NCBI GenBank assembly: GCA_015233115.1
Contig: JADFYJ010000005.1
Coordinates: forward strand, 22,359 to 86,358
Source: Candidatus Omnitrophota bacterium
GTDB lineage: Bacteria > Omnitrophota > Gorgyraeia > Zapsychrales > Zapsychraceae
Length of the DNA: 64,000 nucleotides
Direction: 5' to 3'
The notes under the pieces were generated by a model. That model made no database searches, had not been told where the DNA came from, and was given only the letters and a program-made list of their open reading frames with translations. The translations under genes and the position numbers were made by a program. Within the stretch, counting starts at the first letter, position 1. Each line of letters begins with the position of its first letter. Of this stretch, positions 34,991 to 58,795 are shown piece after piece.

Positions 34991-35728
34991 TTATCCTTGT
35001 TGATGGGAAACAACTTTTCCAAAACGCCGGTCCCGCTTTTGATAATCAAGAATCGCTTTTTTAAATTCATTTTTTGTGAAATCCGGCCACAAAACTTCAG
35101 TAAACAAAAACTCAGCGTATGACAATTGCCATAATAAAAAATTACTGATCCGTTGTTCTCCTGACGTGCGGATTAATAAATCCGGGTCGGGTAAATCTTT
35201 GGTATATAAATAACGTCCTACTGTTTCTTCTGATATAGTTTTTTGTGATAATTTCCCAATGACCACATCTTTGGCAATATTCTTAATCGCGTCAACAATT
35301 TCACCTCGGCTGCCGTAATTAAAAGCCAGATTTACGGTCAAGCCAGTATTCTTATCCAGCTTATGTATCACCGCTTCCAGCTCATTCCAAACTTTATCCG
35401 GAACGCCTTCTCGCCGACCGCACAACCGCACCCGGATGTTATCCCGCTGCAATTTCGACATTTGATTATTCAAGACCAGACACATGGTCTTCATAATCCC
35501 CTCAACTTCAGATTGCGGCCGATTCCAATTTTCCGTGGAAAAAGCGAATAACGTCAAAACCTTGATCCCCATCTCCCTCGCGACATCCATTACTTCACCA
35601 ACACGCTTAACGCCTTCCAAATGTCCTTGCGGACGGGTCAGCCCGCGCTTCTTTGCCCAGCGTCCGTTCCCATCCATAATGATCGCCACATGCTGAGGTA
35701 TTCGTTTAGGATCTAAATCAACCATCAT
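34991..35728 (-). CDS. uppS: Ditrans,polycis-undecaprenyl-diphosphate synthase
   Basis: 245-aa ORF: HVAIIMDGNGRWA, and FSTENWNRP. Confidence 0.9.
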   Translation of the reverse strand: MMVDLDPKRIPQHVAIIMDGNGRWAKKRGLTRPQGHLEGVKRVGEVMDVAREMGIKVLTLFAFSTENWNRPQSEVEGIMKTMCLVLNNQMSKLQRDNIRVRLCGRREGVPDKVWNELEAVIHKLDKNTGLTVNLAFNYGSRGEIVDAIKNIAKDVVIGKLSQKTISEETVGRYLYTKDLPDPDLLIRTSGEQRISNFLLWQLSYAEFLFTEVLWPDFTKNEFKKAILDYQKRDRRFGKVVSHQQG

Positions 35729-36456
35729 TATTTTCTCTCGTCTATCAACGTTCCATTCTCGTCATACTTCTTGACCGGATGTTCCAGTTTACCTTTTTTA
35801 AAAAGCATTTCTGTTCTCAACTGACCAGTTTCGAAATATATCTTAAGCAACCCGTCACGCTTGCCATCACTATAAAAGCCTTCCATTCGCAATTTTCCAT
35901 TTTCATGATAGGTTTTTAAAAAACCATCTATTTGGCCGTCTTTATATGTTCCAGTCTCACGCAAATTACCATTTTCATGATATTTTTTATATGCGCCCTT
36001 CCGCTTTCCAGAGGCGTAAATAACTTCACTCCGCAGCTTTCCATCGTAATAATATTTCCTGACTAAGTCTTCTTTCTGACTATTGATAAGAACCCCGTCC
36101 TCCATTAATTTTCCATTTTCATAATATACCTTAAATGGACCTTCCGCTTTACTATCAATGTATAATTCTGTTTCTTTAAGGGCTCCGCTTTCGTAATAGA
36201 GTTTAGCTTCCCCTTGTGCTTTACCGTTTATAAAATTGACTTCACTCTCCACCTTCCCGTTTTCGTAGTATTTTCTAAACAGGCCATCTTTAACTCCACC
36301 CTTGAAAAACCCTTGCTGAAACAACTTCCCGCTTTTGTAATAAGTTTTATGCGGTCCATCTGGTATAGTTTCTGAAGAAAAAAGTAGCCGCGTTGAAAAT
36401 AACAAAAATATGGTGCCGATCAGGATGATATTAAAATTTTGTCTTTGAAAAATCAT
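35728..36456 (-). CDS. Secreted MORN-repeat-variant protein (YwqK-like), paralog 1
   Basis: 242 aa with signal peptide, then ~8 repeats of YYENGKL/YHENGNL-type MORN-variant units. Confidence 0.6.
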   Translation of the reverse strand: MIFQRQNFNIILIGTIFLLFSTRLLFSSETIPDGPHKTYYKSGKLFQQGFFKGGVKDGLFRKYYENGKVESEVNFINGKAQGEAKLYYESGALKETELYIDSKAEGPFKVYYENGKLMEDGVLINSQKEDLVRKYYYDGKLRSEVIYASGKRKGAYKKYHENGNLRETGTYKDGQIDGFLKTYHENGKLRMEGFYSDGKRDGLLKIYFETGQLRTEMLFKKGKLEHPVKKYDENGTLIDERK

Positions 36457-36521: not shown

Positions 36522-37268
36522 CTATTTCGGGTTTAGTGTCTTTTCACTTTCATCATGCATTGTCTCTAAACCTTCTTGAATACCATTCTTAAAAAAGACT
36601 TCTTTTTTTAACTGTCCACTTTCGTAATATGTTTTAAACGACCCCTCCAACTTACCATCCTTAGTCGTTCCTTCCTGATACAATTTTCCACTTTGGTAAT
36701 ACGTTCTGAACAATCCGTCTTGCACATCATTCTTGTAATTTGTTTGCAATTCTATTATCCCATTTTGTCTATACGTCGTCAAAAGACCCTCTAGCTTACT
36801 ATCATTATAATGGGCTTCCTGCTTTAACTCTCCCCCTAAATAAAAGTCTTTACGAAAACCTTCCCCTTTAATTTTCAAAATTCCGTCAGTCATCAACTGT
36901 CCACCCGGATAATATGCTTTAAAGGGACCATCTTGCTGGTCATCCTTCAGCGCCATTTCTTCTTGCAAATTCCCGTTTTCATAATATTTCTTCATTGGTC
37001 CGTCATGTAAACCAAGTTTAAATGTCCATTCTTCTTTCAACTTCCCATTTTCGTAGTACTCTTTGTACGGCCCTTCCAACTTTCCATTTTTAAAAATTCC
37101 GTCCAGTTGCAATTTTCCATCAGCATAATATGTTTTATAAGGTCCATCTAAAGGTTTGCCTTCATCCGCCTTTTGTTCCGACTGAGCACAAGATAAAGGG
37201 GTTATTACAAACAATAAAAAAAACGCAATAATTAAATTAATTTTAAAATTTTGTTTTCGATCAATCAT
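36522..37268 (-). CDS. Secreted MORN-repeat-variant protein (YwqK-like), paralog 2 (tandem duplicate)
   Basis: 248 aa with the same architecture. Flanking non-coding sequence is also duplicated (cctctacaaataaaagggg). Confidence 0.6.
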   Translation of the reverse strand: MIDRKQNFKINLIIAFFLLFVITPLSCAQSEQKADEGKPLDGPYKTYYADGKLQLDGIFKNGKLEGPYKEYYENGKLKEEWTFKLGLHDGPMKKYYENGNLQEEMALKDDQQDGPFKAYYPGGQLMTDGILKIKGEGFRKDFYLGGELKQEAHYNDSKLEGLLTTYRQNGIIELQTNYKNDVQDGLFRTYYQSGKLYQEGTTKDGKLEGSFKTYYESGQLKKEVFFKNGIQEGLETMHDESEKTLNPK

Positions 37269-43637: not shown

Positions 43638-44540
43638 TTATTTAGCCTCCTCCCATTTAGCTTCTTTTAATAAAAATTCCACGACTTTCGCCGGAAGATT
43701 TTCCCCCTGCTTCACTTCAATTTTTTCTTCTTCCGCGATTTTTTCCAAGGTTAAATAAACCCGGATATCCTTCTCAACCGCTGATTTTAAATCATTGAGG
43801 ACATCTTCCTCTTTCTTCTTTATATCCGTATCAGACATCCCTTGTTTCTTAAGCCGTTCTTTGACTTCCGCGGCTCTGCGTTCTACTTGTTTCTTCACTA
43901 ATCCTTGAGGAACAACTAATTTAGCTTTCTTCATGACCGCTTCAATCACCTGATTCTCAAGATCAGTGCGGCTTTGACGTTCTTTATCCAATTCCAATTG
44001 ACGGCGCAAGGATTTTTTAAGTTCTTCCAAATTAGGAAAACCTAAACCATTCGCGAAACTATCGTCAAATACGACTTCTTCTTTTTCTTTGCCTTGCCCC
44101 TGTTTAAAATATTCCAGGGTTTTCTGAATATCTTCATCGCTCACCTGCGCGCTTTTGCGCGTGACTTTCACGCCCTTATAATCTTTGACTGTCACCTCAG
44201 GACGGATGTCTAATGAGGCTTTAAACGATATTTTCCCGTCGTTAAAAGCGACATCTTCAATGTCCGGCATATCAATCGGGATGAGCTTTTCATTTTCAAT
44301 GGCTTCCTGATATACTTCCGGAATCAGTTTTTTTAAAACTTCTTCTTTAGCGAGATTGCCATATTGCGATTCCAAAATATTGCGCGGCGCTTTTCCCTGA
44401 CGAAAACCCTTGATCTTCGCGGCTTTAGCCAGGTCGTCATAAATTTCCTGCATTTTTTTCGCGACCCGTTCTTTGGAAATTTCGAAATTCAATTCACGTC
44501 TAGTTGGGTCTACTTTTTTAACTTCAACTTTCATTAACAA
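43638..44540 (-). CDS. tig: Trigger factor, short form lacking the FKBP/PPIase domain (N-terminal ribosome-binding plus C-terminal chaperone arm only)
   Basis: 300 aa with the TF signature [13 protein letters not shown] in the N-domain. No FKBP-like block. Immediately upstream of clpP as in the tig-clpP arrangement. Confidence 0.7.
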
Positions 44541-44558: not shown

Positions 44559-45287
44559 TTACATTCTAAATTTTTCACCTAAATAAATTTTTCTTGCTTC
44601 CGGATCATTAATCAATTCTTCGGCTGTACCGGATATCAAAACTTTTCCCTCTGCGATCAAATACGCCCGGTCCGTGATGGCTAAAGTTTCTCTTACATTA
44701 TGATCTGTTAACAAAATCCCCAACCCTTTATTCTTTAACTCTTTAATAATCTCTTGCGCCTCTGCGACGACAATAGGGTCGATTCCGGAAAACGGCTCAT
44801 CCAGCAATAAAAATGATGGATTCGTCACCAAGGCGCGGGTAATTTCCAAACGCCGCCGCTCACCACCGGAGAGCGTGAAAGCTTTACTCTTGGCTAGATG
44901 CGCGATATTCAATTCTTCCAGCAAAGACTGCAGTCTGCGTTTGCGTTCTTTAGGACCAATATCCAAAGTTTCCAAAATCGCCATGATATTTTCTTCCACA
45001 GTCAATTTACGGAAAATAGAAGATTCTTGGGCCAAATAACCCATTCCCAGACGGCAACGATCATGAATTGATTTCCGGGTAATATCTTCATTATCAAAAA
45101 ATATCTGGCCATCATTCGGTTTAATAATACCCACAGCCATGTAAAAAGTTGTGGTCTTTCCTGCCCCATTAGGCCCTAAAAGCCCCACAATTTCCGACCG
45201 GCCCACTGTGATGCTGAGGCCATCAACAACTTTCCGGCTTCCGTATTCCTTGCACAGTCCCCTAGTTTCCAAAAGGTGTAAGGCCAT
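44559..45287 (-). CDS. lptB: LPS export ABC transporter ATP-binding protein LptB
   Basis: GPNGAGKTTTF Walker A and LSGGERRRLEITRAL signature. Start taken at the second Met (MALHLLETRGL...). Confidence 0.8.
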   Translation of the reverse strand: MALHLLETRGLCKEYGSRKVVDGLSITVGRSEIVGLLGPNGAGKTTTFYMAVGIIKPNDGQIFFDNEDITRKSIHDRCRLGMGYLAQESSIFRKLTVEENIMAILETLDIGPKERKRRLQSLLEELNIAHLAKSKAFTLSGGERRRLEITRALVTNPSFLLLDEPFSGIDPIVVAEAQEIIKELKNKGLGILLTDHNVRETLAITDRAYLIAEGKVLISGTAEELINDPEARKIYLGEKFRM

Positions 45288-46131
45288 TAGTCCCCTCAGT
45301 CTCAAATATCAGTTTTGGTTTTCCAGACAACGTGATTTTTTGTGTACCAGCGTCGTAAACCGCTTTTTCCGCAAAGGTTTGATTCTCTCCTTGAGTGATC
45401 ACCACGTTACCTTCACAAACTAATTGCTTAATTTTTTTTTCTTCCTTATTGAAATAAACTTTCATAATATCCGAACGCAAAGTCTGCGTATCCCGGACAG
45501 CTTTGACATTATCATGAAAAACAGCAATCATATCCGCCTGATCTAATTCCATTGGCCCATCACTGGTGATCGTGACAATTTGTTTATTTTTTTCATTTGG
45601 CGCCGTAGCCACCCGAGCTGTCACATCTTTTTTAATTTCCGCTGTTTTTTCTTTAGTATGCGCTTCCATGCCAGTGCCGGTTACAGTCATCTGATTCCCG
45701 GTAAAAGCCACATCATCCTTGGTCTGAACCACATCTTTATTGCGGTCCCATTCCAAAGAATTGGTCATCATCTGCTGTCCATCCTGAGCTGTAATCACCA
45801 CATCTTTTTCCAAACGCATTTTGTTTTGCGTTTGATCTATATATCCGGTTTCTGCCGTGACATTAACTTTATTTTCGCCAAAGGTGTTGGCATCAACATT
45901 CTGAACTTTAATCTCATTGCCGACAATATCCGCTTTATCGCCTTTCACATCCCATTGCTTCTCTCCGGTATTAGAATATCCTTGCAAATTAAATCCCTGA
46001 AGCTGCTGTTGCGGTTGCGGCTGTCCAGATTTTTTAGTCGGAATAATCTCCGGTGCCTGTTCCTGCGCCCATCCGATATAAGAAATAAAAACTAAAATTA
46101 ACGCGCATAATACAGATCGGAAAATTTTCAT
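45262..46131 (-). CDS. LptA/LptC-family (OstA-like) periplasmic LPS-transport protein
   Basis: Signal/anchor MKIFRSVLCALILVFISYIGWA, then beta-jellyroll-like repeats. Located between kdsC and lptB as in kdsC-lptC-lptA-lptB clusters. Confidence 0.55.
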   Translation of the reverse strand: MKIFRSVLCALILVFISYIGWAQEQAPEIIPTKKSGQPQPQQQLQGFNLQGYSNTGEKQWDVKGDKADIVGNEIKVQNVDANTFGENKVNVTAETGYIDQTQNKMRLEKDVVITAQDGQQMMTNSLEWDRNKDVVQTKDDVAFTGNQMTVTGTGMEAHTKEKTAEIKKDVTARVATAPNEKNKQIVTITSDGPMELDQADMIAVFHDNVKAVRDTQTLRSDIMKVYFNKEEKKIKQLVCEGNVVITQGENQTFAEKAVYDAGTQKITLSGKPKLIFETEGTNGLTPFGN

Positions 46132-46667
46132 ACAAAAGTCTCCAGCACGGTTTTCCACCGGCTCTGTGTTTTCAATATTAACTCCACAACTTCGCGAACT
46201 GCGCCATTTCCGCCCGATTTTTTAGTGACATAATGCGCATATTGTTTAGCATCCGAGGAAGCATTGGCCACAGCCACCGCGAACCCGGCTTGTTTTAAAA
46301 CCGGAATATCCGGCAAATCGTCGCCGACAAAACACACTTCGTCTGGAGAAACATTGAAATTTTTCAAAAGATCCCCAAACGCGGCCGACTTAGGATACGC
46401 ATCTTGATACACTTTGTCAATTTTTAAATCAAGAGCCCGCGCTGCCACACAACCGGATGAACGCGCGGTAATAATCGCCGTTTTAAGGCCGGCTTTACGC
46501 AAAACCGCAATACCCAAGCCGTCCTGAACATTAAACATTTTAATCTCCTGGCCCTTCTCATCCAAATTAATAGAGCCGTTCGTCATAACCCCATCAACAT
46601 CAAAGGCAATGACCTTGATCTTCATGATGCGTTGTTTTAAATTTTTTGTCATATGAATTAATTTCAT
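46128..46667 (-). CDS. kdsC: 3-deoxy-D-manno-octulosonate 8-phosphate phosphatase (HAD family)
   Basis: FDVDGVMTNG (DxDG HAD motif I) and GDDLPD motif IV. Start codon is uncertain (three in-frame Met). Confidence 0.75.
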   Translation of the reverse strand: MKLIHMTKNLKQRIMKIKVIAFDVDGVMTNGSINLDEKGQEIKMFNVQDGLGIAVLRKAGLKTAIITARSSGCVAARALDLKIDKVYQDAYPKSAAFGDLLKNFNVSPDEVCFVGDDLPDIPVLKQAGFAVAVANASSDAKQYAHYVTKKSGGNGAVREVVELILKTQSRWKTVLETFV

Positions 46668-49440: not shown

Positions 49441-49780
49441 AGTAACCAAGTAACCGAGTAACCGAGTAACAAAGTAACAGCATAAAAACTATTGGTTTTA
49501 AAAAACACAAAACCAGGAAAAATATATTTTAATAGTAAACATGTAAATAAAGTAACAAAGCAAAAACATAAAAACGCTTGGTTCTAAAGAACATAAAACC
49601 TAAAAAACATATAATAAACATTTATTTTATAAAATTATTCTTTTGAGAAACACAAACAATTTTTATTTTATTCCGGTTATCCAAGCTTTTATGCTTTAAT
49701 TTCTGATTCTTCTTTTATCCATTCGCTTTTGCTCTGTTACTCGGTTACTCGGTTACTTGGTTACTTTTTAATAGCGTCTA
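49441..49780. repeat. 8-nt repeat inverted-repeat element (GTAACCRA family) with core ATTCGCTTTTGCT and ~240-nt AT-rich loop, between the rfaE-like gene and kdsB
   Basis: AGTAACCAAGTAACCGAGTAACCGAGTAACAAAGTAACAG ... GCTCTGTTACTCGGTTACTCGGTTACTTGGTTACTTTTTA (reverse complement). Confidence 0.7.
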
Positions 49781-50774
49781 AAAGTTCTTCCACTGACACG
49801 GCATAGACGCCTAACTTTCCCACCACCACACCCGCCGCAGCATTAGCCATTTTAGCTGACTGGCGCTTGTCTGCGCCTGCAGTTAATGCTAAAGTAAACA
49901 CCGAAATCACCGCGTCGCCCGCGCCAGTCACATCAAAAACTTCCTGCGCTTGAGTAGGAATAGAAAACGATTTTTTATTTTTTTCAAATAACCGCATACC
50001 CTTCTCACCCAAAGTGATGAGTAAAGACTCAAGATCCAAATAACGCATCAATTCCTGCCCAGCCAAATCGATTTCTTCATCCGTACCTAACCGGTCCACA
50101 GTAATATCCAAAGTCGGCGCAGTAGAGGTAATTTTAATATTCCTGATCGCGTTCTCTGCCTCTTTTAAATTCGGCGTAATGGATGTCACCTTACGATAAT
50201 AGCTAAAATGCCCCACTTTCGGATCTACCGTAATGATCTTTTTCTTGCGCAAAGCTAAATGGCACACAAATTCCACTAGCTCAGACGTAATAACCCCTTT
50301 TCCATAATCCGATAAAATAATCCCATCACATTCCGCAATATGTTTTTCAATAAACTGTAAAATCTTTTCCTGAACCTGCCGGTTCTCACCGCGGACTTGT
50401 TCCTGGTCGATGCGGACAATCTGCTGATGCTGAGCCATAACCCTGGTTTTCGTGATGGTCGGGGCTTTATTATCCAAAAATATCCCGTTGGTATTAATAT
50501 CTTTACGCTTCAACTCCCGCTTTAACAACTGGCCTTCAAAATCATTCCCAATTCTACCAACCTGCATCACATTCGCCCCTAATTTCCGCAAATTATGCGC
50601 TACATTAGCCGCTCCCCCTGGCGTATAAAAGAATTTTTCCTGTAAAAGCACTGGCACAGGCGCTTCTGGAGAAATCCTGGACACTGTTCCTTTGATATAA
50701 CGGTCCAAAATCACATCCCCAATCACCATAATAGTTTTGGATTTGAACCGTTTTACGATATCCGCGTAAGTCAT
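49761..50774 (-). CDS. PfkB-family sugar kinase, RfaE/HldE domain I-like (D-glycero-D-manno-heptose 7-phosphate kinase)
   Basis: 337-aa ORF with a ribokinase-like fold and DVTGAGDA near the C-terminus. Sits in the LPS core cluster. Confidence 0.7.
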   Translation of the reverse strand: MTYADIVKRFKSKTIMVIGDVILDRYIKGTVSRISPEAPVPVLLQEKFFYTPGGAANVAHNLRKLGANVMQVGRIGNDFEGQLLKRELKRKDINTNGIFLDNKAPTITKTRVMAQHQQIVRIDQEQVRGENRQVQEKILQFIEKHIAECDGIILSDYGKGVITSELVEFVCHLALRKKKIITVDPKVGHFSYYRKVTSITPNLKEAENAIRNIKITSTAPTLDITVDRLGTDEEIDLAGQELMRYLDLESLLITLGEKGMRLFEKNKKSFSIPTQAQEVFDVTGAGDAVISVFTLALTAGADKRQSAKMANAAAGVVVGKLGVYAVSVEELLDAIKK

Positions 50775-50849
50775 ACCCTGCCTTTATTATATAAATTGAA
50801 TCAAAACGAAGCCAAATTGTAACATACTTTGATAAGAGCGTCAACGGCC

Positions 50850-50878
50850 TTGACAACAGAAAAAACATGTGGCATATT
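50850..50878 (+). promoter_or_regulatory. Candidate sigma70 promoter for the first FG-GAP gene (TTGACA-17 nt-CATATT)
   Basis: TTGACAacagaaaaaacatgtggCATATT lies 50 nt upstream of the ATG at 50929. RBS AAGGAA is 9 nt upstream of the start. Confidence 0.3.
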
Positions 50879-50928
50879 TGATAAAATTTACCTAACAATA
50901 TAAACAAACCCTTAATTAAGGAACTCAA

Positions 50929-52980
50929 ATGAAAAAAATTTGCTTATTATTAATGCTACTGGTGTCATTCGCCCCTCATTCCGGTTCTGCGGCTAGCGAT
51001 GGTCCTTTCTGGTCCTGGGTTTCAGCTCCCACATTGATGGATATTAATAACGACGGAACAACAGAGTTGGTATATAATCGGGGCGGACAATTATATGCTT
51101 ACAATAATAAAGGAATCCTCCCAGGTTATCCTAAAATTTCGAAACTAAATCCCTATTCAACCCCAACTATCGTTGATTTAAACAGTGACGGGAAAAAAGA
51201 AATTATCGGCGTATGCGACAAAAATAAAATTTGCATTTATGATACAGACGGAGCAGTATTTCATGGTTGGCCACAAAAGGTCTCAGGCCATGTGGTCAGT
51301 TCACCAGCCGTAGCAGATATAGACAAAGATGGTCTCTATGAAATTGTCGTTGGTACAGATTATAGCGGGTCAAAATCCACCAAAGTTTATATTTTCCGCC
51401 AAGATGGCAGCTTAATGACTGGCTGGCCGAAAGATGTTATGGCGGGGGTAGCAGCAAACCCGGTTATTGCTGATATTAACGGGGATGGCTCATTAGACAT
51501 TGTGGTCGCAACGCTGGATGGAACAATCCATGTATGGGACAAAGATGGCCACAATCTTCCGGGATGGCCTAAATTCATTTCAGGAAAAGCAACGGACTTT
51601 GGCAGTATTTATGGATCTTCACCTGCTGTTGCTGACTTAAATAATGATGGCACAAAAGAAATTGTAGTTTGTGATAGTACCGGTCACATTTTTGTTTTAA
51701 AAGCTGATGGTTCCATACTGAAAGGCTGGCCTCAAACCGCGGGCCATTCAATCCAATTTTCTTCACCCTCAATCGGTGATGTGAATGGAGATGGAAAATT
51801 AGAAATCGCAGTAGGCAGTTTTGATGGAAAAGTATATCTATGGAAAGCAGACGGTACAATCATGCCTGGTTGGCCTCAAGCAACACAAGGCCCGGTTTAT
51901 GCTTCCCCAGTTTTAATTGATATTGATCAGGATGGCAAATTAGAAGTTGCCGCTGGTTCAACCGATAATAAAGTTTATATTTGGCAAGCCAATGGAAACC
52001 TCCTTGCTGGATGGCCGCAAACAATATCAGAAAAAAGCTTGAATTCTCTGGCATTCGGTGATTTTGATAATAATGGCAAACTTGATCTTTTAGCTGTGAC
52101 AGATAACAAAGTGAATACTTGGAAATTTGCCAATACAACCACTTTACCTTGGTCGATTCCTCGGTATGATCAGCAAAGAACAGGTTTTTATTCGTACAAA
52201 AAAAATGACGCAGAAATCATTGTTTATAAACAGCCTGTCGCAGTAGCGATAGGTACTTCCGTAACGTTAAAAGTTAAAGTCACGAACAACGGCCTCGACG
52301 TATGGAAAAACGGATATGATGTTTTAACAAAAACCCTTAATAAAAACGCTTATGATTGCCGCGCCCATCTTTATGATGCCAAAGGCAAATTATTAGTATG
52401 GGATTTATTCATGTCGGGAAATGATTTTCCCAAAGATGTCAAACCCGGAGAAACCGCCTGGTTAACGTTTACAGTTCCAACCACCGGAAAAAATGCCAGC
52501 ATTACTCAAACAGGTTCCTATATGCTTGGCGTCGATGTTGTTCATGAAAACGTAGCCTGGTTTAATCAGGAAGTTAAAACCAACATTTTTAAAGTGCAAA
52601 AAAATAATGACGCAGCTATTGTTATTCTCCAACAGCCGAATTCAGTAAAAATAGGCAATGCCGTAACATTAACAGTCAAAGTAACCAATAATGGTTTTGA
52701 TGTCTGGAAGCACAATGATGATAAAAACGGTTCCTATGCCTGCCGCGCCCACCTTTATGATTCTAAAGGCAATTTGAAAGTATGGGATTTATTCTTACGT
52801 GGAAAAGATTTAGGAAAAGATGTAAAACCCGGCGAAACTGTTACTCTCTCTTTTTCTGTACCAGTCGAAAAAAGCTCAAATATTCCAGCCGGCACATACT
52901 CCTTAGGAGTAGATATGGTCCATGAAAAAGTAGCATGGTTTAATCAAATAGTAAAAACAAATACTTTTATAGTTAAATAA
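50929..52980 (+). CDS. Secreted FG-GAP/beta-propeller repeat protein with two C-terminal Ig-like (CARDB-like) modules, paralog 1
   Basis: Signal peptide MKKICLLLMLLVSFAPHSGSAAS. About eight ~50-aa repeats, each with GWPq and a Ca-binding-like D-x-N/D-x-DG-x-x-E loop (ADINGDGSLDIVVAT etc.). The ~130-aa C-terminal module (...VTNNGxDVWK...YDCRAHLYD...DVKPGET...) is duplicated. Confidence 0.7.
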   Translation: MKKICLLLMLLVSFAPHSGSAASDGPFWSWVSAPTLMDINNDGTTELVYNRGGQLYAYNNKGILPGYPKISKLNPYSTPTIVDLNSDGKKEIIGVCDKNKICIYDTDGAVFHGWPQKVSGHVVSSPAVADIDKDGLYEIVVGTDYSGSKSTKVYIFRQDGSLMTGWPKDVMAGVAANPVIADINGDGSLDIVVATLDGTIHVWDKDGHNLPGWPKFISGKATDFGSIYGSSPAVADLNNDGTKEIVVCDSTGHIFVLKADGSILKGWPQTAGHSIQFSSPSIGDVNGDGKLEIAVGSFDGKVYLWKADGTIMPGWPQATQGPVYASPVLIDIDQDGKLEVAAGSTDNKVYIWQANGNLLAGWPQTISEKSLNSLAFGDFDNNGKLDLLAVTDNKVNTWKFANTTTLPWSIPRYDQQRTGFYSYKKNDAEIIVYKQPVAVAIGTSVTLKVKVTNNGLDVWKNGYDVLTKTLNKNAYDCRAHLYDAKGKLLVWDLFMSGNDFPKDVKPGETAWLTFTVPTTGKNASITQTGSYMLGVDVVHENVAWFNQEVKTNIFKVQKNNDAAIVILQQPNSVKIGNAVTLTVKVTNNGFDVWKHNDDKNGSYACRAHLYDSKGNLKVWDLFLRGKDLGKDVKPGETVTLSFSVPVEKSSNIPAGTYSLGVDMVHEKVAWFNQIVKTNTFIVK

Positions 52981-52998
52981 ACGTTTCTTTCCCATCCC

Positions 52999-53034
52999 GC
53001 CTCCGGTAGACAAAAGTCTCCCGGAGGCTTTTAT
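52999..53034 (+). terminator. Rho-independent terminator after FG-GAP paralog 1
   Basis: GCCTCCGGtagacaaaagtctCCCGGAGGC followed by TTTTAT. Confidence 0.65.
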
Positions 53035-53200
53035 AGCCAATTAAAGTAACCGCTTTCGCTAAAACGGTCCTACCCCCTTTTTTTTTATTAAAAGCCATGG
53101 CAAACTTAAAGTATGGAAAGCGTGTCTTATAAAACCAGTATTGTTAAAAAAATACATGAGTTTTATTAATATGAATCAAATACAACACAGGAGAGCAAAT

Positions 53201-55930
53201 ATGTTAAGAACCAACCCCCAAAAATTTTCTGTATTATTCTTAGCATTGATTCTCTCAATACTCATTTTGTCCTACGACTCTCAAGCAGCTTCAAAATCTA
53301 CGGTAACATCCCAACCTAAGGGGGCGGTAGGAGTACCCCAAAGCGACCCGGATTTTACTATGGTAGTCCTTCCTGATACTCAATATGAGGTAGACTGGGA
53401 AGCCAAAAAAACATCAACAATTTGGACCACCATGACAGATTGGATAAAAGCGGATCCTTTAAAGCTGAATATTAAAGTAGTCATTGGCGTTGGTGATATT
53501 ACTGATCAGCATGATAAATCAGAAATAGATTTTATAACAGCCCAACAAGGCTTCAATAAAATTCTCAGTGCTTCTATCCCTTATGTCCCCACAATTGGTA
53601 ATCATGATTATGATGACGCCTATAACCGCGTAGCTACAACCTATGATAAATATTTCGGTCCTGCTCAGCTTAGCAAAAGTGAAAAACAGTGGTATGGCGG
53701 TTGTTACAACGGAAGTGATCAAAACTTTTACATGAAATTTGACATTGGAACGCATAAATATCTCGTTCTAGCTCTAGAATTTTTCCCCAGCGCTAAAGCC
53801 TTGTCTTGGGCACAAGGCATTTTGGACGCCAACGCAAACGCTGATAGAGAAGTTATCGTGACAACACACGCCTATCTTAACCAAAATGGCGAGCGGCAAG
53901 GTAATGAGGGTCTGGGAGCTCTAAATTATTATAAAGGAAAGATTGAACAAACTGATTTTAATAACGGACCTGAAATGTGGGATGCCTTTATTAAAAAAAA
54001 TAAAAACATCATCATGACTTTAAATGGACACTTTACGGACACAATAACCACAGCAAAAAGAACTGATGCCGGCACTTATGGTAATCTCATACACCAAATA
54101 TTTGTGGATTATCAATATCGAAATTTGGGTGATGGGTATATGATGCTTTTAAAATTCCAACCTTCCTCCAATAATATACAGGTATCATTTTATTCGCCGT
54201 ATTTAGGAATCTACGATCCAAAAAATAAGACTTACGACTTGCCCTATAACATGCCTAATGGATCAACACCAAACCAATTTAAAACTTCTCCGGTTTCCGA
54301 TTCTGTTTTAATGGATATTAATAATGACGGACAAAAAGAATTGACATTTATTAAAAATGGGCAAATGAATGCTTATGACAGTAAAGGGTCTTCTCTCTCT
54401 GGCTTTCCTTGGAATACCCGCTTTAATACCACCTCTCCTGCTATCGTTGATTTAAACGGTGACGGAAATAAAGAAATTATTGGAGGCTGTGATAAAGGTC
54501 TTTGTGTATACGATACAAACGGCATGATGGTTTCCGGATGGCCGAAAATAATATCTGGGACAAATATCAGCGCGCCAGCTGTGGCAGATTTGGACAAAGA
54601 TGGACGAAAAGAAATTGTCATAGAAGCCGCCGCTTATACCGGAGCGCCCTCCACTAACCTTTATGTTTTCCATTCTGATGGTACTTTAATGGAAGGCTGG
54701 CCGAAAAGTGTTGATGGCGGCGTGGCGACAAATCCAATAATCGCTGACTTGTACGGAAACGGATCATTAGATATCATTGCCGCAACCCTTAATGGGCCAA
54801 TTTACGTATGGGATATCAATGGAAACGCTTTGGAGGGATGGGCTAGACGACTTCCAAAAATAAAACTCGATTATAATGCTATTTTTAAAACCTCACCAGC
54901 TGTGGCAGATTTAAATAATGATGGTAAAAAAGAAATTGTGCTCTGCGATAATAATGGTATGGTCTATGTTTTTAAACCAAATGGTGAAATTCTATCCTCT
55001 AACTGGCCCAAGCAAATCTCTGCGGGAACTGAATTAACTGCTCCCTCCATCGGAGATATCAATAATGACGGAAAACTTGAAATCGCGTTAGGGAGTTCAA
55101 ATGGAAAAGTATATTTATTAAATAACGACGGCTCAAATGTAACTGGCTGGCCGCAAACGACCCAAGGCCCCATTTATGCGGCGCCAGTGCTCGCCGATGT
55201 TGACAATGACGGCAAATTAGAAATAGCAGTCGGTTCAACTGATAAAAAAATATATATTTGGAAGAATAATGGATCACCGCTATCGGGATGGCCCAAAATT
55301 ACCAATAATTCATTCCTGACTCCTCTAGTTTTAGGCGATTTTGATAACGATGGTATTCTTAACCTCATAGCTGTCACAGACGCTCAGGTGTATAGTTGGA
55401 AATTAACCTGTACCAAAAATTTACCTTGGTCCATTCCCCGGTATGATTTTCAAAGGACAGGTTTTTATTCGTACAAAAACAATGACGCGGAAATCATTAT
55501 TTACCAGCAACCGAATTCCGTTAAACTGGGCAATTCCGTTACCGTAAAAGTTAAAGTCACAAATAATGGTCTGGATACCTGGAAAAGCGGTTATGACGTC
55601 TCAACCGGCAATTTCAACAATAAAGCATATGATTGCCGGGCACATCTTTATAATGCTAATAGCAAATTATTAACCTGGGACTTGTTCATGACTGGCAATG
55701 ATTTTACAAAACCCAATGATGGAAAATACATCAAAGATACCAAAAAATACCCGTTCATACCCGCAGATGTGAAACCAGGCGAAACAAATTGGATGATTTT
55801 TACTATTCCCACAGGGAAAAACACCAGCATCACAAAACCAGGAACCTATAAACTTGGAGTAGATTTAGTCCAAGAAACAGTGGCATGGTTTGGACAGGAA
55901 ATAAAATCATTAACTTTTAAAGTTGAATAA
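53201..55930 (+). CDS. Secreted fusion protein: N-terminal calcineurin-like metallophosphoesterase, FG-GAP beta-propeller, and C-terminal Ig-like module, paralog 2
   Basis: Start at ATG 53201 (RBS CAGGAGAG; signal peptide FSVLFLALILSILILSYDSQAAS). Phosphoesterase motifs GDITDQHD, GNHDYDD, TTHAYLN. Then the same FG-GAP repeats and C-terminal module as paralog 1. Confidence 0.7.
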   Translation: MLRTNPQKFSVLFLALILSILILSYDSQAASKSTVTSQPKGAVGVPQSDPDFTMVVLPDTQYEVDWEAKKTSTIWTTMTDWIKADPLKLNIKVVIGVGDITDQHDKSEIDFITAQQGFNKILSASIPYVPTIGNHDYDDAYNRVATTYDKYFGPAQLSKSEKQWYGGCYNGSDQNFYMKFDIGTHKYLVLALEFFPSAKALSWAQGILDANANADREVIVTTHAYLNQNGERQGNEGLGALNYYKGKIEQTDFNNGPEMWDAFIKKNKNIIMTLNGHFTDTITTAKRTDAGTYGNLIHQIFVDYQYRNLGDGYMMLLKFQPSSNNIQVSFYSPYLGIYDPKNKTYDLPYNMPNGSTPNQFKTSPVSDSVLMDINNDGQKELTFIKNGQMNAYDSKGSSLSGFPWNTRFNTTSPAIVDLNGDGNKEIIGGCDKGLCVYDTNGMMVSGWPKIISGTNISAPAVADLDKDGRKEIVIEAAAYTGAPSTNLYVFHSDGTLMEGWPKSVDGGVATNPIIADLYGNGSLDIIAATLNGPIYVWDINGNALEGWARRLPKIKLDYNAIFKTSPAVADLNNDGKKEIVLCDNNGMVYVFKPNGEILSSNWPKQISAGTELTAPSIGDINNDGKLEIALGSSNGKVYLLNNDGSNVTGWPQTTQGPIYAAPVLADVDNDGKLEIAVGSTDKKIYIWKNNGSPLSGWPKITNNSFLTPLVLGDFDNDGILNLIAVTDAQVYSWKLTCTKNLPWSIPRYDFQRTGFYSYKNNDAEIIIYQQPNSVKLGNSVTVKVKVTNNGLDTWKSGYDVSTGNFNNKAYDCRAHLYNANSKLLTWDLFMTGNDFTKPNDGKYIKDTKKYPFIPADVKPGETNWMIFTIPTGKNTSITKPGTYKLGVDLVQETVAWFGQEIKSLTFKVE

Positions 55931-55945
55931 TAAATTCTTATTAAC

Positions 55946-55982
55946 CCGCCTCTGACGGAAAATATCCGTCGGAGGCTTTTTA
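55946..55982 (+). terminator. Rho-independent terminator after FG-GAP paralog 2 (homologous to the one after paralog 1)
   Basis: CGCCTCTGACGGaaaatatCCGTCGGAGGC followed by TTTTT. The flanking aaagtaaacgctttcc block is also shared with the first intergenic region. Confidence 0.65.
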
Positions 55983-56100
55983 AGATAGTTTAAAGTAAAC
56001 GCTTTCCCCAAAACGCTTTTACACTCTTTTTATTTTTCAAATTACCATATATACTTTAGACATGAATATAAATGTTGGCAAACACCAAAGGAGCTGGAAA

Positions 56101-57876
56101 ATGAAAAAAATTTATTTACTGTTAGTTTTACTGTTAGTAGCGTTTAAGCCTGCTTTTGGATCTGTCATTAATAACATCGGCTTAGACCCAACCCAAAAAA
56201 CTTCAGATCCAGTTTCAGCCGATTTGTTTAACAATGGACAAAAAGAAGTCATCTACACTCAAAATGGCCAAGTCTACGCTTACGATAAAAACGGAATTAT
56301 CCCAGGCTTTCCCTGGAAACATACATACTTTAATGCTGCTTCTTCTTTAGCTATCGTAGATTTATACGGCGATGGTAATAAATATGTTATTGGAGGTTGT
56401 TACAATAAAACAGCCGGCAACGAAGTTTGTGTATACGATTCACATGGTGTTGCTCCTCATGGATGGCCCCAGAAAGTCTCAAGTTATATTGGTGGTGCGC
56501 CAGCTATTGCGGATTTAGATAATAATCATCAAAAAGAAATTATAGTCGCCACAAATATGCAGGTTTATATTTTCAATTCTGATGGGAAGTTGCGGTCTAA
56601 CTGGCCTAAAACGGTGGAATTTACTGGTAGGCCTGGTGTGATTGGCATGAATGGAGTGAGTACCAGCCCTGTTATCGCGGATATGGATGGAGATGGTGCA
56701 TTAGATATCATAGTAGCAACTACCAGCGGATTAATTAATGTTTGGAATAAAGATGGAAACTTAATTCACAAATATTATGGAACTTATATGTTAGGGACCG
56801 CACCTGCGGTTGCCGATTTAAATCAAGACGGTAAAAATGAAATAGTTTTCGGTGATCAAACCTTGAATAATTCCTACAACTATGTAGGTAACATCTATGT
56901 TTATAAAAAAGATGGCAAGCTAGTCTGGAAAAAACCAATTGAAGGCGGATTAGCACATTCTTCTCCGGTCATAGGCGATTTGGATAAGGATGGCAAATTA
57001 GAAATTGTGGCGACAGGAAGTGAAGGAAAAGTATATGTGTTCAAAGCTGATGGTTCTCTCATGCCAGGTTGGCCGAAATCTATTCCTGGCCAAATTGCCA
57101 CGTCCCCGGTTTTATTAGATATTTTTCAGGATAAAAAATTAGAGATAGTTGTCACGGCAAAAGATGGAAACGTATATTTTTGGAATTATGAGGGAACTTT
57201 AGTTCCATTTCAAAGTGGTAAAAATCCAATGCCCAATCCGATGCGCATATTACCACAAGGTAATGTATTAAACTCTCCGGTTTTTGGTGATTTTTATGGC
57301 GATGGGTATTTGGATATCGTAGCTGTTGCAGGCAACTCTATTGCTAATTGGGAATTACCGCCCTATAAAACAACTTTACCTTGGTCAACCCCTGGGTATG
57401 ATTTTCAACGAACAGGATATTATTCTTACAAAAGTAATGACGCGGAAATTGTTATTTACAACCAACAACCCAAAAATGGTTCAGTCACTTTAAACGATTC
57501 TGTAACTTTAAATGTTAAAGTCACGAATAATGGCTATGACACATGGAAAAGCGGTTATGATGTCGTAACGAAAAAGTTTAATGACAACGCCTATGATTGC
57601 CGCCCCCATCTTTATGCTTCAAAAGGCAACCTATTAAAATGGGACTTATACGTGGCAACAGGTCTCGATAAAAACAAAAAATATTACGGGAATGACTTCG
57701 GAAAAGATGTAAAACCTGGTGAAAGTGTTTTAATGACATTAATCATTCCTACCACCGGACAAAATGCCGCATTATTTAAAAAAGGCTCCTCATATCGCCT
57801 CGGCGTTGACGTGGTCCATGAAACTGTCGCATGGTTTGGACAAGAAGTGAAATCAGCGGCTTTTACAATTAAATAA
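56101..57876 (+). CDS. Secreted FG-GAP/beta-propeller repeat protein with one C-terminal Ig-like module, paralog 3
   Basis: Start at ATG 56101 (RBS AAAGGAGC; signal peptide MKKIYLLLVLLLVAFKPAFGS). Same repeats, including GWPQ and ADLDNNHQKEIIVAT-type loops. Confidence 0.7.
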   Translation: MKKIYLLLVLLLVAFKPAFGSVINNIGLDPTQKTSDPVSADLFNNGQKEVIYTQNGQVYAYDKNGIIPGFPWKHTYFNAASSLAIVDLYGDGNKYVIGGCYNKTAGNEVCVYDSHGVAPHGWPQKVSSYIGGAPAIADLDNNHQKEIIVATNMQVYIFNSDGKLRSNWPKTVEFTGRPGVIGMNGVSTSPVIADMDGDGALDIIVATTSGLINVWNKDGNLIHKYYGTYMLGTAPAVADLNQDGKNEIVFGDQTLNNSYNYVGNIYVYKKDGKLVWKKPIEGGLAHSSPVIGDLDKDGKLEIVATGSEGKVYVFKADGSLMPGWPKSIPGQIATSPVLLDIFQDKKLEIVVTAKDGNVYFWNYEGTLVPFQSGKNPMPNPMRILPQGNVLNSPVFGDFYGDGYLDIVAVAGNSIANWELPPYKTTLPWSTPGYDFQRTGYYSYKSNDAEIVIYNQQPKNGSVTLNDSVTLNVKVTNNGYDTWKSGYDVVTKKFNDNAYDCRPHLYASKGNLLKWDLYVATGLDKNKKYYGNDFGKDVKPGESVLMTLIIPTTGQNAALFKKGSSYRLGVDVVHETVAWFGQEVKSAAFTIK

Positions 57877-57890
57877 AAATGATATTATCA

Positions 57891-57929
57891 AAAAACGGCT
57901 TTGGCGATATTGACCAAAGCCGTTTTTTA
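57891..57929. terminator. Bidirectional terminator hairpin between convergent FG-GAP paralog 3 and arfB
   Basis: AAAAAACGGCTTTGGcgatattgaCCAAAGCCGTTTTTT, with A-run and T-run on either side. Confidence 0.65.
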
Positions 57930-57937
57930 TTTCTCCT

Positions 57938-58303
57938 TTATTCCCAATCTCGAGAATTTATTCTTAGCTTCTTTTTTTCTGATCTAATATGTTTAGCTTC
58001 AAGCATTTTTTCCTTGGCGGATTGGGAAAGTTTACGGTTTTTGCGGCGCTCTTTTTCTTTAGCGGTGATAATGACACTCCGCTCTTTCTGCTCCCTCTGC
58101 TCAAGCTTACTTAATAACATCGCCCGCGCCGTAATACGGTTTAAAGCCTGATTTCGTTCTTTCTGGCATTTAACCTGAATACCGGTCGGAATATGATAAA
58201 GCACCACACAAGTAGCGACTTTATTAACATTCTGCCCGCCAGCCCCTGACGAACGGACAAACGTCTCCTTAATATCTTTCTCTAAAATTTTAATATGCGG
58301 CAT
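57938..58303 (-). CDS. arfB: Alternative ribosome-rescue factor ArfB (peptidyl-tRNA hydrolase, GGQ domain)
   Basis: 121-aa ORF with GGQ motif in ...[18 protein letters not shown]... and a basic C-terminal tail. Confidence 0.8.
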
Positions 58304-58356
58304 ACGCTTTTTTATTATATTTAGATCATGCCATGACTAAAAAAAGGGCAGTGTTA

Positions 58357-58430
58357 AAATCATGTCCCAGAGCGAGTTTCCTTGGCGCTTCGCCAAGGTT
58401 GTTTGAGCGAAGGACAGGATTTTAATAGTG
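58357..58430. repeat. Diverged third copy of the structured element (core only): CCCAGAGCGAGTT-[CCTTGGCG CTT CGCCAAGG]-TTGTTTGAGCGAAGGA, with a new outer stem AAAATCATGTCC/GGACAGGATTTT, nested in a further 10-bp inverted repeat (58327-58338 / 58432-58443)
   Basis: Flanking motifs are identical to copies 1 and 2. The 8-bp stem is completely replaced yet still pairs, and the CTT loop is retained. Confidence 0.55.
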
Positions 58431-58461
58431 ACCGATCAAGCCGTCATGGCATTCCACCATG

Positions 58462-58773
58462 TTATACAAATGAACAACAATAATCTGTGCCTTTAATAAT
58501 TTTCACTTTAAATTTGGAAGACCCCGTTACTTCAAAGGATTCGCCGCCTTTAATTTTTTTCCAAACCGTCTGCCCCGGCAATAACACCTCAAGTTCACCC
58601 GACATAATCTCCATAATCTCCGGCGCATTCGTACCGAATTCATATTCACCCGGAAGCATAAACCCCAAAGTTTTAGTAGACCCATCAGCAAATTTAATCG
58701 TCCGACTCACCACTTTAGCCTCAAAATACACATTAGCTTTTTTAACAACTGTTACATTAGTGAATTCACTCAT
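58462..58773 (-). CDS. ppnP: Pyrimidine/purine nucleoside phosphorylase PpnP (DUF1255 cupin)
   Basis: 103-aa ORF, ...VYFEAKVVSRT...LGFMLPGEYEFGT..., matching the YaiE/PpnP family. Confidence 0.7.
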   Translation of the reverse strand: MSEFTNVTVVKKANVYFEAKVVSRTIKFADGSTKTLGFMLPGEYEFGTNAPEIMEIMSGELEVLLPGQTVWKKIKGGESFEVTGSSKFKVKIIKGTDYCCSFV

Positions 58774-58795
58774 GTTCCCATCTCCTATTAGATTA

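Follow-up and report, generated by a model that had tools for sequence, protein, structure and literature searches.

The stretch of DNA analysed here (the window) comprises 64,000 nt of the metagenome-assembled genome (MAG) GCA_015233115.1 of a Candidatus Omnitrophota bacterium, positions 22,359-86,358 of the forward strand of contig JADFYJ010000005.1. Within it, three paralogous genes, referred to here as g1, g2 and g3, stand in tandem on the plus strand, antisense to the lipopolysaccharide (LPS) genes that surround them, and encode predicted exported proteins built around an FG-GAP beta-propeller, to which g2 adds a metallophosphoesterase (MPE) head. They are the only large plus-strand open reading frames (ORFs) (g1, 50929-52980; g2, 53141/53201-55930; g3, 56062/56101-57876), with about 50 kb of minus-strand coding sequence upstream and 6 kb downstream; the four remaining plus-strand ORFs of at least 150 aa lie within, or largely overlap, longer minus-strand genes. 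This survey confirms the statement of the initial annotation of the window that the trio represents its sole substantial plus-strand genes.

An AGGAG/AAGGA ribosome-binding site (RBS) precedes each gene, and the start sites chosen on this basis (50929, 53201 and 56101) give proteins of 683, 909 and 591 aa, identical to the database entries P0121 (g1), P0001, i.e. MBF0478611.1 (g2, 100%), and P0122 (g3). NCBI names the family only as "VCBS repeat-containing protein", so the earlier remark that it lacks a standard annotation was a fair one. The candidate promoter of g1 (50850-50878, plus strand) is a sigma-70-like TTGACA-17-CATATT with an extended TG, recognised by consensus match only and divergent from the hldE promoter candidates. 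At the other end, hairpins followed by a U tract close all three genes (dG -23, -25 and -21 kcal/mol; z -6.4 to -6.8 relative to shuffled sequences). Those of g1 (52999-53032, plus strand; dG -23 kcal/mol, z -6.8) and g2 (55948-55981, plus strand; 12-bp stem, dG -25 kcal/mol, z -6.5), together with about 50 nt 3' of each, are homologous to one another, whereas g3 ends in a different, bidirectional A6-stem-loop-stem-T6 hairpin (57890-57928, both strands; 15-nt arms, 100% complementary), common to the convergent ArfB-like gene. Thus, of the RBS and homologous terminator initially ascribed to each gene, the first is present in all three and the second is limited to g1 and g2. With 46-57% pairwise identity between the proteins and about 68-71% between the genes, the earlier proposal of a duplicated gene unit is well supported: the trio was produced by tandem duplication of whole transcription units, and each of the three genes forms an antisense transcription unit of its own. 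Paralogy of blades or modules accounts for all repeat families in the region, and an Rfam scan of the window detected no RNA families.

The spacers 3' of the g1 and g2 terminators (53037-53090 and 55983-56036, plus strand) share a "TTAAAGTAAnCGCTTTCnCnAAAACG...CTTTTT" element, whose first copy can form a small hairpin and was flagged as a minus-strand terminator-like signal at 53069-53048. This duplicated element may be a regulatory or promoter-proximal element for the next gene.

Domain architecture of the three proteins

All three proteins begin with a signal peptide (aa 1-21 in g1, 1-29 in g2 and 1-21 in g3), as initially noted, in which a hydrophobic core is followed by a small-x-small (A-x-A-like) site of the signal peptidase I type without Cys at +1. 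No transmembrane-like window after residue 40 and no lipobox were detected in the trio, and the C-termini are hydrophilic. The three proteins are therefore predicted to be Sec-exported.

The signal peptide is followed in g1 and g3, and the MPE head in g2, by an FG-GAP region (about aa 30-405 in g1; about aa 365-740 in g2, 54293-55420, plus strand; about aa 35-425 in g3). The Pfam family FG-GAP_3 (PF13517) matches g1, g2 and g3 with 169, 143 and 122 bits (cut-off 26.9; E = 2e-50, 3e-42 and 2e-35) and FG-GAP (PF01839) with 107, 58 and 44 bits (cut-off 22.1). Each protein contains eight complete Ca loops, D-x-D/N-x-(D/N)-G-x-x-E/D, spaced by about 47 aa, and a G-W-P turn per blade, which suggests an eight-bladed Ca-type propeller in each paralog. 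The Pfam scores and the loop counts bear out the Ca-type FG-GAP propeller initially described, and the Ig-like modules placed after it are likewise present and of the E-set type. Likeness to proteins of known structure is found only at the level of the repeat: partial Pfam matches to Beta-prop_CGLA and RGL11_C, and matches to WD40 and ITFG2 proteins in a PDB sequence search. The propellers of integrin alpha and of PL11 rhamnogalacturonan lyase and lambda-carrageenase likewise consist of FG-GAP repeats with D-x-D-x-D-G Ca loops, again a repeat-level likeness. In integrins the propeller is seven-bladed, not every blade has a Ca loop, and there is a transmembrane anchor; the trio proteins are unanchored and have a Ca loop in each of their eight repeats.

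The head of g2 (aa 45-360; 53333-54280, plus strand) matches Metallophos (PF00149) marginally, with 21.6 bits against a cut-off of 21.5, and that of its paralog P0002 from another contig with 28.3 bits. More than 80 secreted homologs are 34-41% identical to it over about 310 aa. An AlphaFold2 (AF2) model built from 20 of these has the alpha/beta-sandwich MPE fold with high confidence (predicted local score, pLDDT, 88.7; predicted template-modelling score, pTM, 0.91), and a Foldseek structure search with it gave 67 PDB matches at E <=1e-3. The 50 that were listed all belong to the metallophosphoesterase superfamily (template-modelling (TM) score 0.37-0.59) and include phosphatases, phosphodiesterases, Mre11/SbcD nucleases and calcineurin; Lmo2642, purple acid phosphatases, ADPRM (2nxf) and Mre11/SbcD score 0.45-0.59 at 9-14% identity. 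A PDB sequence search with the head gave nothing meaningful, and NCBIfam holds no model covering this head family. The phosphoesterase fusion proposed for the second paralog is thus borne out by Pfam match, homologs and model. Its metal site is unusual. The residues conserved in the family are D59, Q61, D99, N134, H135, H223 and H277 (g2 numbering), with GD, GNHD and the motif IV His invariant in the alignment. Instead of D-x-H, motif I reads D-T-Q in g2 and in 18 of the 20 sequences of the alignment, and only the first His of motif V (G-H-x-H) is kept, so that the canonical dinuclear site of five motifs (D-x-H, G-D, G-N-H-D/E, H, G-H-x-H) is not found in the family alignment. By sequence and model, the head is a variant MPE.

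The best balanced structural match of the head is ADPRM, the Mn-dependent ADP-ribose/CDP-alcohol diphosphatase (TM 0.59 normalised to either chain), although identity is only 11% and ADPRM is cytosolic. ADPRM also has Gln in motif I (D-x-Q), which is a lead rather than a test. The D, Q, D, N-H, H, H pattern is shared with a family of secreted MPEs from Acidobacteriota, Bacteroidota and others (P0006-P0101), which carry Ig (Big_7) or carboxypeptidase-regulatory (CarboxypepD_reg) tails where g2 has an FG-GAP propeller and an FW module. In two Acidobacteria-like lineages, stand-alone MPE relatives lie directly downstream of, and co-directional with, a TonB-dependent receptor gene (loci L155-L158, 215-2500 and 6001-8133; L159-L162, 2040-5378 and 6001-7809), one of these loci also having a weak match to glycoside hydrolase family 26 (GH26), and a relative from Bacteroidales has a gene for a secreted Endonuclease_NS nearby. 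The receptor adjacency was not seen in the Bacteroidales contig or in a 2.5-Mb contig (L163, L164). We therefore discarded it as a general MPE context, being limited to two lineages and not conserved across phyla, and the hints that these neighbourhoods give on the substrate are weak.

The C-terminal modules measure about 130 aa. In g1, a linker (LPWSIPRYD, aa 406-424) leads to modules A (aa 425-558, 52201-52602, plus strand) and B (aa 559-683, 52603-52977, plus strand); g2 has a linker and one module (aa 760-909, 55478-55927, plus strand) with a 17-aa lineage-specific insertion, and g3 a linker (aa 426-444) and one module (aa 445-591, 57433-57873). These four copies and one in P0003, a further paralog encoded outside the window, are 53-70% identical. 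The core called invariant in the initial annotation is present, but it is not strictly so, reading YACRAH in g1 module B and CRPH, WDLY and PGES in g3. A profile of the module searched against 1.84 billion representative proteins retrieved 284 relatives: only three clusters fall at E < 1e-30, all belonging to this same propeller-FW family, and among the approximately 280 weaker matches many are tandem arrays. Nine matches were sampled; seven have any Pfam match, and in all seven it is PF16158, the "FW" Ig-like domain of NBR1. In a joint alignment, 11 of 24 sequences individually match PF16158, whereas the window copies do not, and there is no direct match above threshold for the window proteins or for g1 module A alone. 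Comparison by hhalign of the window-family modules with a set of seven PF16158-matching segments nevertheless gave 99.5% probability (E = 3e-22, 106 columns).

The AF2 model of the module (pLDDT 94.3) is an E-set beta-sandwich whose closest PDB folds (overall TM 0.5-0.6) are the Fn3-like domains of family 3 glycoside hydrolases (GH3) and the CARDB domain of PF1109 (3idu, TM 0.51-0.61). The best PDB profile match is the FW-domain protein ILRUN (6vhi), with a marginal E = 0.037; a PDB sequence search gave nothing meaningful, and nothing was found by a metagenome scan with the FW-module profile. CARDB (PF07705) matches only g1 module B among the trio (23.6 bits against 22.7). The initial label "Ig/CARDB-like" was therefore right at clan level, but PF16158, which belongs to the same clan, suits the module better. 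Most probably, the module is a bacterial NBR1-like FW domain that has diverged and carries insertions specific to the lineage. It shares with the FW domains of NBR1 and ILRUN (PF16158, N_BRCA1_IG) the Ig-like beta-sandwich and the N-x-G...W, WD and VAWF elements, and differs in an insertion of about 10 aa ("VxTKxxNxxAYDCR"), in a longer loop before the last sheet, and in being extracytoplasmic by predicted export, NBR1 being an autophagy receptor of the cytosol. The occurrence of FW domains in bacteria is acknowledged, though they are uncharacterised there, and the eukaryotic FW domain binds protein cargo (PMC9582228).

A family with exchangeable heads

The only proteins outside the window more than 40% identical to g2 are P0002 (MBF0478849.1) and P0003 (MBF0478848.1). 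P0002 consists of an MPE head and a propeller and stops after "...KWKLP", at the very point from which linker and FW module would be expected; it may be truncated or naturally tail-less. P0003 has a DUF2334 (67 bits)/Polysacc_deac_1 (40 bits) head, a propeller and an FW module. Since their accessions are consecutive and fall in the same block as that of g2 (MBF0478611), the two are adjacent genes, on a contig of 119,397 bp, and very probably belong to the same MAG as the trio. The five propellers (g1-g3, P0002 and P0003) are roughly equidistant (47-58% identity). The three headed proteins begin with a similar leader, MLR/KxNxxxF... (MLKHNPKIF... in P0003), and since P0003 carries a different enzyme, this similarity indicates that the head was exchanged while the leader before it and the chassis after it were conserved. 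Judging from these alignments, the family would comprise at least five paralogs at two loci of one MAG, in which exchangeable heads are mounted on a chassis of propeller and FW modules. g2 and P0002 bear a variant MPE and P0003 a polysaccharide deacetylase of carbohydrate esterase family 4 (CE4)/DUF2334, g1 and g3 have no head, and the number of FW modules ranges from zero to two.

Close relatives outside this MAG were not found in about 15 billion proteins, and a scan of GTDB genomes with the family alignment gave, among the matches listed, only FG-GAP propellers at most 34% identical, from many phyla, and neither this MAG nor the locus of P0002 and P0003. Of 37 distant, non-family FG-GAP matches in the protein search, at least 29 carry S8, C1A, M6-like or C25 peptidase heads according to Pfam, and none has an MPE (PF00149) or CE4 (PF01522) head. 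Two proteins combine the propeller with FW-type modules: P0241 (1200 aa) joins an S8 subtilase to an FG-GAP propeller and has one such module at its C-terminus, and P0203 (1806 aa) has its FG-GAP region at the N-terminus and five such modules after it, so that propeller and FW are also found together, with other partners, beyond this MAG. The closest analogy to the trio family is offered by the secreted peptidase-FG-GAP/VCBS fusions, a large class (S8, C1A, M6-like and C25, among them NF052323, "T9SS-dependent M6-like inactivated metalloprotease", the Woesearchaeota S8 proteins P0087-P0096, and P0241). They share the GWP...SPAxADxDxDGxxE blade, with 28-38% identity over the propeller, and the arrangement of an N-terminal hydrolase head before the propeller, P0241 having the FW-type C-terminus as well. 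The trio family differs in carrying an MPE, a CE4 or no head instead of a peptidase, and in having no C-terminal domain of the type IX secretion system (T9SS). The succession of a hydrolase head, an FG-GAP propeller and, optionally, an Ig tail is thus already known and widespread; the MPE heads, the CE4 head and the headless forms are new combinations on this theme. Our literature search found no paper naming both Omnitrophota and FG-GAP, and a giant-gene preprint makes no mention of FG-GAP, VCBS or phosphoesterase.

Age and context of the insertion in the LPS operon

On one side of the trio lie the genes for LptB, an LptC-LptA fusion, KdsC, KdsD, KdsA, KdsB and an HldE-type kinase, and on the other four genes of glycosyltransferase family 9 (GT9) and one of family 4 (GT4). 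The initial annotation had placed the trio between the KDO/heptose-kinase genes and the GT9 array; the LPS flanks are as described, but two minus-strand genes intervene before GT9, one for an ArfB-like RF-1-domain protein of 121 aa (57938-58303) and one for the nucleoside phosphorylase PpnP (58462-58773). The whole segment from HldE to the first GT9 gene, GT9a, spans positions 50775-58795.

We used the HldE kinase as a probe, which retrieved 78 metagenomic loci, and mapped the neighbours of the trio in the window onto the 37 loci of at least 10 kb. In the nine closest (HldE 59-67% identical), the order is GT4-GT9d-GT4-GT9c-GT9b-GT9a-HldE-KdsB-KdsA-KdsD-KdsC-LptCA-LptB, all co-directional, and the gap between GT9a and HldE is about 45-280 nt with no gene in it. 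None of the 37 loci contains a homolog of g1-g3 at E < 1e-8 or a match to ArfB or PpnP. In loci less closely related, the junction is occupied by 1-3 kb of different genes; in the Omnitrophota-like operon of L110 (6930-9902), for instance, it holds a gene for a 663-aa histidine kinase and a deoxyhypusine-synthase-like gene. In L133 (1985-8135), likewise Omnitrophota-like, 6 kb between GT9b and GT9a hold PPK2-like, HigB/HigA-like toxin-antitoxin and nucleotidyltransferase/HEPN-like genes, assigned by reading their translations. The GT9/HldE region thus looks like an insertion hotspot. As the junction is uninterrupted in the relatives and receives other cargo elsewhere, the segment 50775-58795 is an insertion specific to this lineage, at a junction of the operon that is permissive. 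The antisense insertion into the LPS cluster described initially is therefore seen directly, with GT9a next to HldE in nine related loci. The co-occurrence of trio and LPS locus in relatives, whose examination the initial annotation had proposed, is absent: neither co-occurrence nor conserved co-orientation was found in any of the nine closest loci or of the 37. The adjacency of the trio to the LPS genes is no evidence that it has a role in LPS biology. Of the genes that accompany it, we observed that the ArfB-like and PpnP genes do not lie at the GT9a/HldE junction in any related LPS locus, so they too are lineage-specific additions to the operon.

Several observations bear on the age of the insertion. 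Divergence between the paralogs is high, with a proportion of synonymous differences (pS) of 0.64-0.65 and dS of about 1.5, near saturation. Gene-wide dN/dS is about 0.21-0.25, which indicates overall constraint only; the comparison of dN/dS suggested earlier thus reveals constraint, while the saturation of synonymous sites precludes a test of diversifying selection between the paralogs. The third-position GC skew of the trio on the plus strand is -0.23 to -0.30, the same as in the minus-strand neighbours, whose own coding strand gives +0.24; this indicates that the genes have equilibrated to the local replication-strand bias. The trio has a lower GC content at third codon positions (GC3) and a lower correlation of relative synonymous codon usage (RSCU), for which the opposite replication-strand bias accounts in large part. 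Since its GC3 skew matches that of the neighbours, we reject a recent inversion of the trio or its recent acquisition by horizontal transfer. Given the dS of about 1.5 and the equilibrated skew, the insertion is not recent, and the genes have resided at this site for long. Neither terminal repeats, target-site duplications, an integrase nor a transposase was found in the trio region, and no PADLOC defence model matched g1-g3 or the ArfB-like or PpnP genes.

Some further features of the window, all on the minus strand, deserve mention. The trigger factor (43638-44540; 300 aa) consists of Trigger_N and Trigger_C with no FKBP-type peptidyl-prolyl isomerase domain between them. The LptC-LptA fusion (45262-46158) is a single 298-aa ORF, with LptC at aa 18-181 and LptA/LptD_N at aa 196-282, and it is found as a single tblastn match in related loci. 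A tandem pair of MORN_2-repeat proteins of about 245 aa each (35728-36456 and 36522-37268) lies between UppS and an OmpA-family gene. The "heptose kinase" (49761-50774; 337 aa) is a PfkB-only protein, i.e. the kinase half of HldE, with no fused adenylyltransferase domain, and no separate adenylyltransferase was seen in the annotated parts of the window.

Possible function of the family

Taken together, these results favor, with a probability of about 0.55, that the trio is part of a lineage-specific family of Sec-exported, modular polymer-binding and polymer-modifying proteins that is independent of LPS synthesis. The Ca-loaded propeller and the FW module would form a platform for the binding or presentation of an extracytoplasmic polymer, a glycan or an envelope component, self or foreign. 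The heads would remove phosphoester or acetyl (ester or amide) groups from the bound polymer, the headless g1 and g3 would act as binding-only paralogs, and the proteins would work in the periplasm or extracellularly. Several points weigh against this proposal. A substrate or ligand is known for none of the three domain types in this lineage, and the restriction of the family to a single MAG makes conservation unusable as evidence of function. The g2 head is without two of the seven canonical metal ligands, so that it could be inactive or mono-metal. Besides, the number of blades was counted from sequence alone, the assignment of P0002 and P0003 to the same MAG rests on accession numbering, and no sorting domain (Por_Secre_tail or other) was detected in the trio by library scans, so that the proteins may end up in the periplasm, on the surface or in the medium.

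A predatory or parasitic life that draws on adhesion-related genes has been proposed for most Omnitrophota (PMC10066038), and it would accommodate a role of the trio in attachment to a host or prey. The Ca propellers would serve an epibiotic or predatory cell as integrin-like adhesins, and the heads would locally remodel the prey envelope by peptidoglycan deacetylation or cleavage of phosphodiester wall polymers. The FG-GAP repeats with full Ca loops, the lineage-specific expansion of paralogs with variable heads, and the cargo- or protein-binding role of eukaryotic FW domains (PMC9582228) fit this idea. However, the trio has none of the features of an anchored adhesin (transmembrane anchor, lipobox, or T9SS, PEP-CTERM or LPXTG signal), its proteins are small beside the known adhesin candidates of Omnitrophota, and no pilus or Tad genes adjoin it, so that we regard attachment as unlikely. 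A role in nutrient scavenging, in which the MPE head would free phosphate or small organophosphates from extracellular polymers while the chassis tethers the protein to particulate substrate, could be read from the MPE relatives found downstream of TonB-dependent receptors in the two Acidobacteria-like lineages, one with the weak GH26 match, and from the Bacteroidales relative near Endonuclease_NS. This neighbourhood is not conserved across phyla, there is no transporter or Pho-type gene beside the trio, and both the headless paralogs and the deacetylase head would be left unexplained; its likelihood is accordingly small.

The position of the trio between the HldE/Kds/Lpt genes and four GT9 heptosyltransferase-like genes is what first suggests LPS or envelope modification, with a periplasmic g2 that dephosphorylates, or strips phosphodiester substituents from, the core or lipid A, and propellers that bind LPS. 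Export would take the proteins to the compartment where LPS is modified, and from a chemical point of view LPS decoration is a plausible task for phosphoesterase and deacetylase heads. But the nine closest operons have no such genes and the 37 loci no homologs, other lineages have unrelated cargo at the same and neighbouring junctions, the trio is antisense with its own promoter candidate, RBSs and terminators, two of its three proteins have no catalytic domain, and two more paralogs lie on another contig. To our knowledge, moreover, the known lipid A phosphatases are PAP2 enzymes and not MPEs. These observations leave LPS modification a slight chance at best, and the recruitment of the family to the LPS locus for a function there, which the initial annotation had entertained, is not supported. 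The same annotation had raised an S-layer-like role, and the toxin-antitoxin module at the hotspot in L133 could evoke defence or mobile-element cargo. Nothing was found in support of an S-layer-like lattice, the trio having no match to S-layer families. With no PADLOC match in the five inserted genes, no integrase, transposase, terminal repeats or target-site duplication, and a composition equilibrated to the strand bias of the host, both ideas are largely refuted and highly improbable.

It is tempting to speculate, at long odds, that the chassis is a lineage-specific, head-swappable platform by which a predatory or epibiotic cell binds an envelope polymer of its prey and delivers to it a phosphodiesterase, directed at phosphodiester-linked wall polymers, and a deacetylase, directed at peptidoglycan or exopolysaccharide, and that the bacterial FW domain is the ancestral extracellular module for cargo or ligand binding that gave rise to the cargo-recognition domain of eukaryotic NBR1. 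The general significance of these findings is modest, because the family is present in one MAG, has no known activity, and secreted FG-GAP fusions are common. Notwithstanding, the locus is a cautionary case for annotation, as the comparative synteny, by exposing a permissive insertion junction, shows that location in an LPS operon need not imply an LPS function. It also provides leads on two widespread uncharacterised families, the bacterial NBR1-like FW domains and the clade of secreted MPEs with a D-x-Q variant metal site. If our inference holds, the family would represent the reuse within a single genome of one binding chassis, a Ca propeller with FW modules, with different catalytic heads behind a conserved leader.

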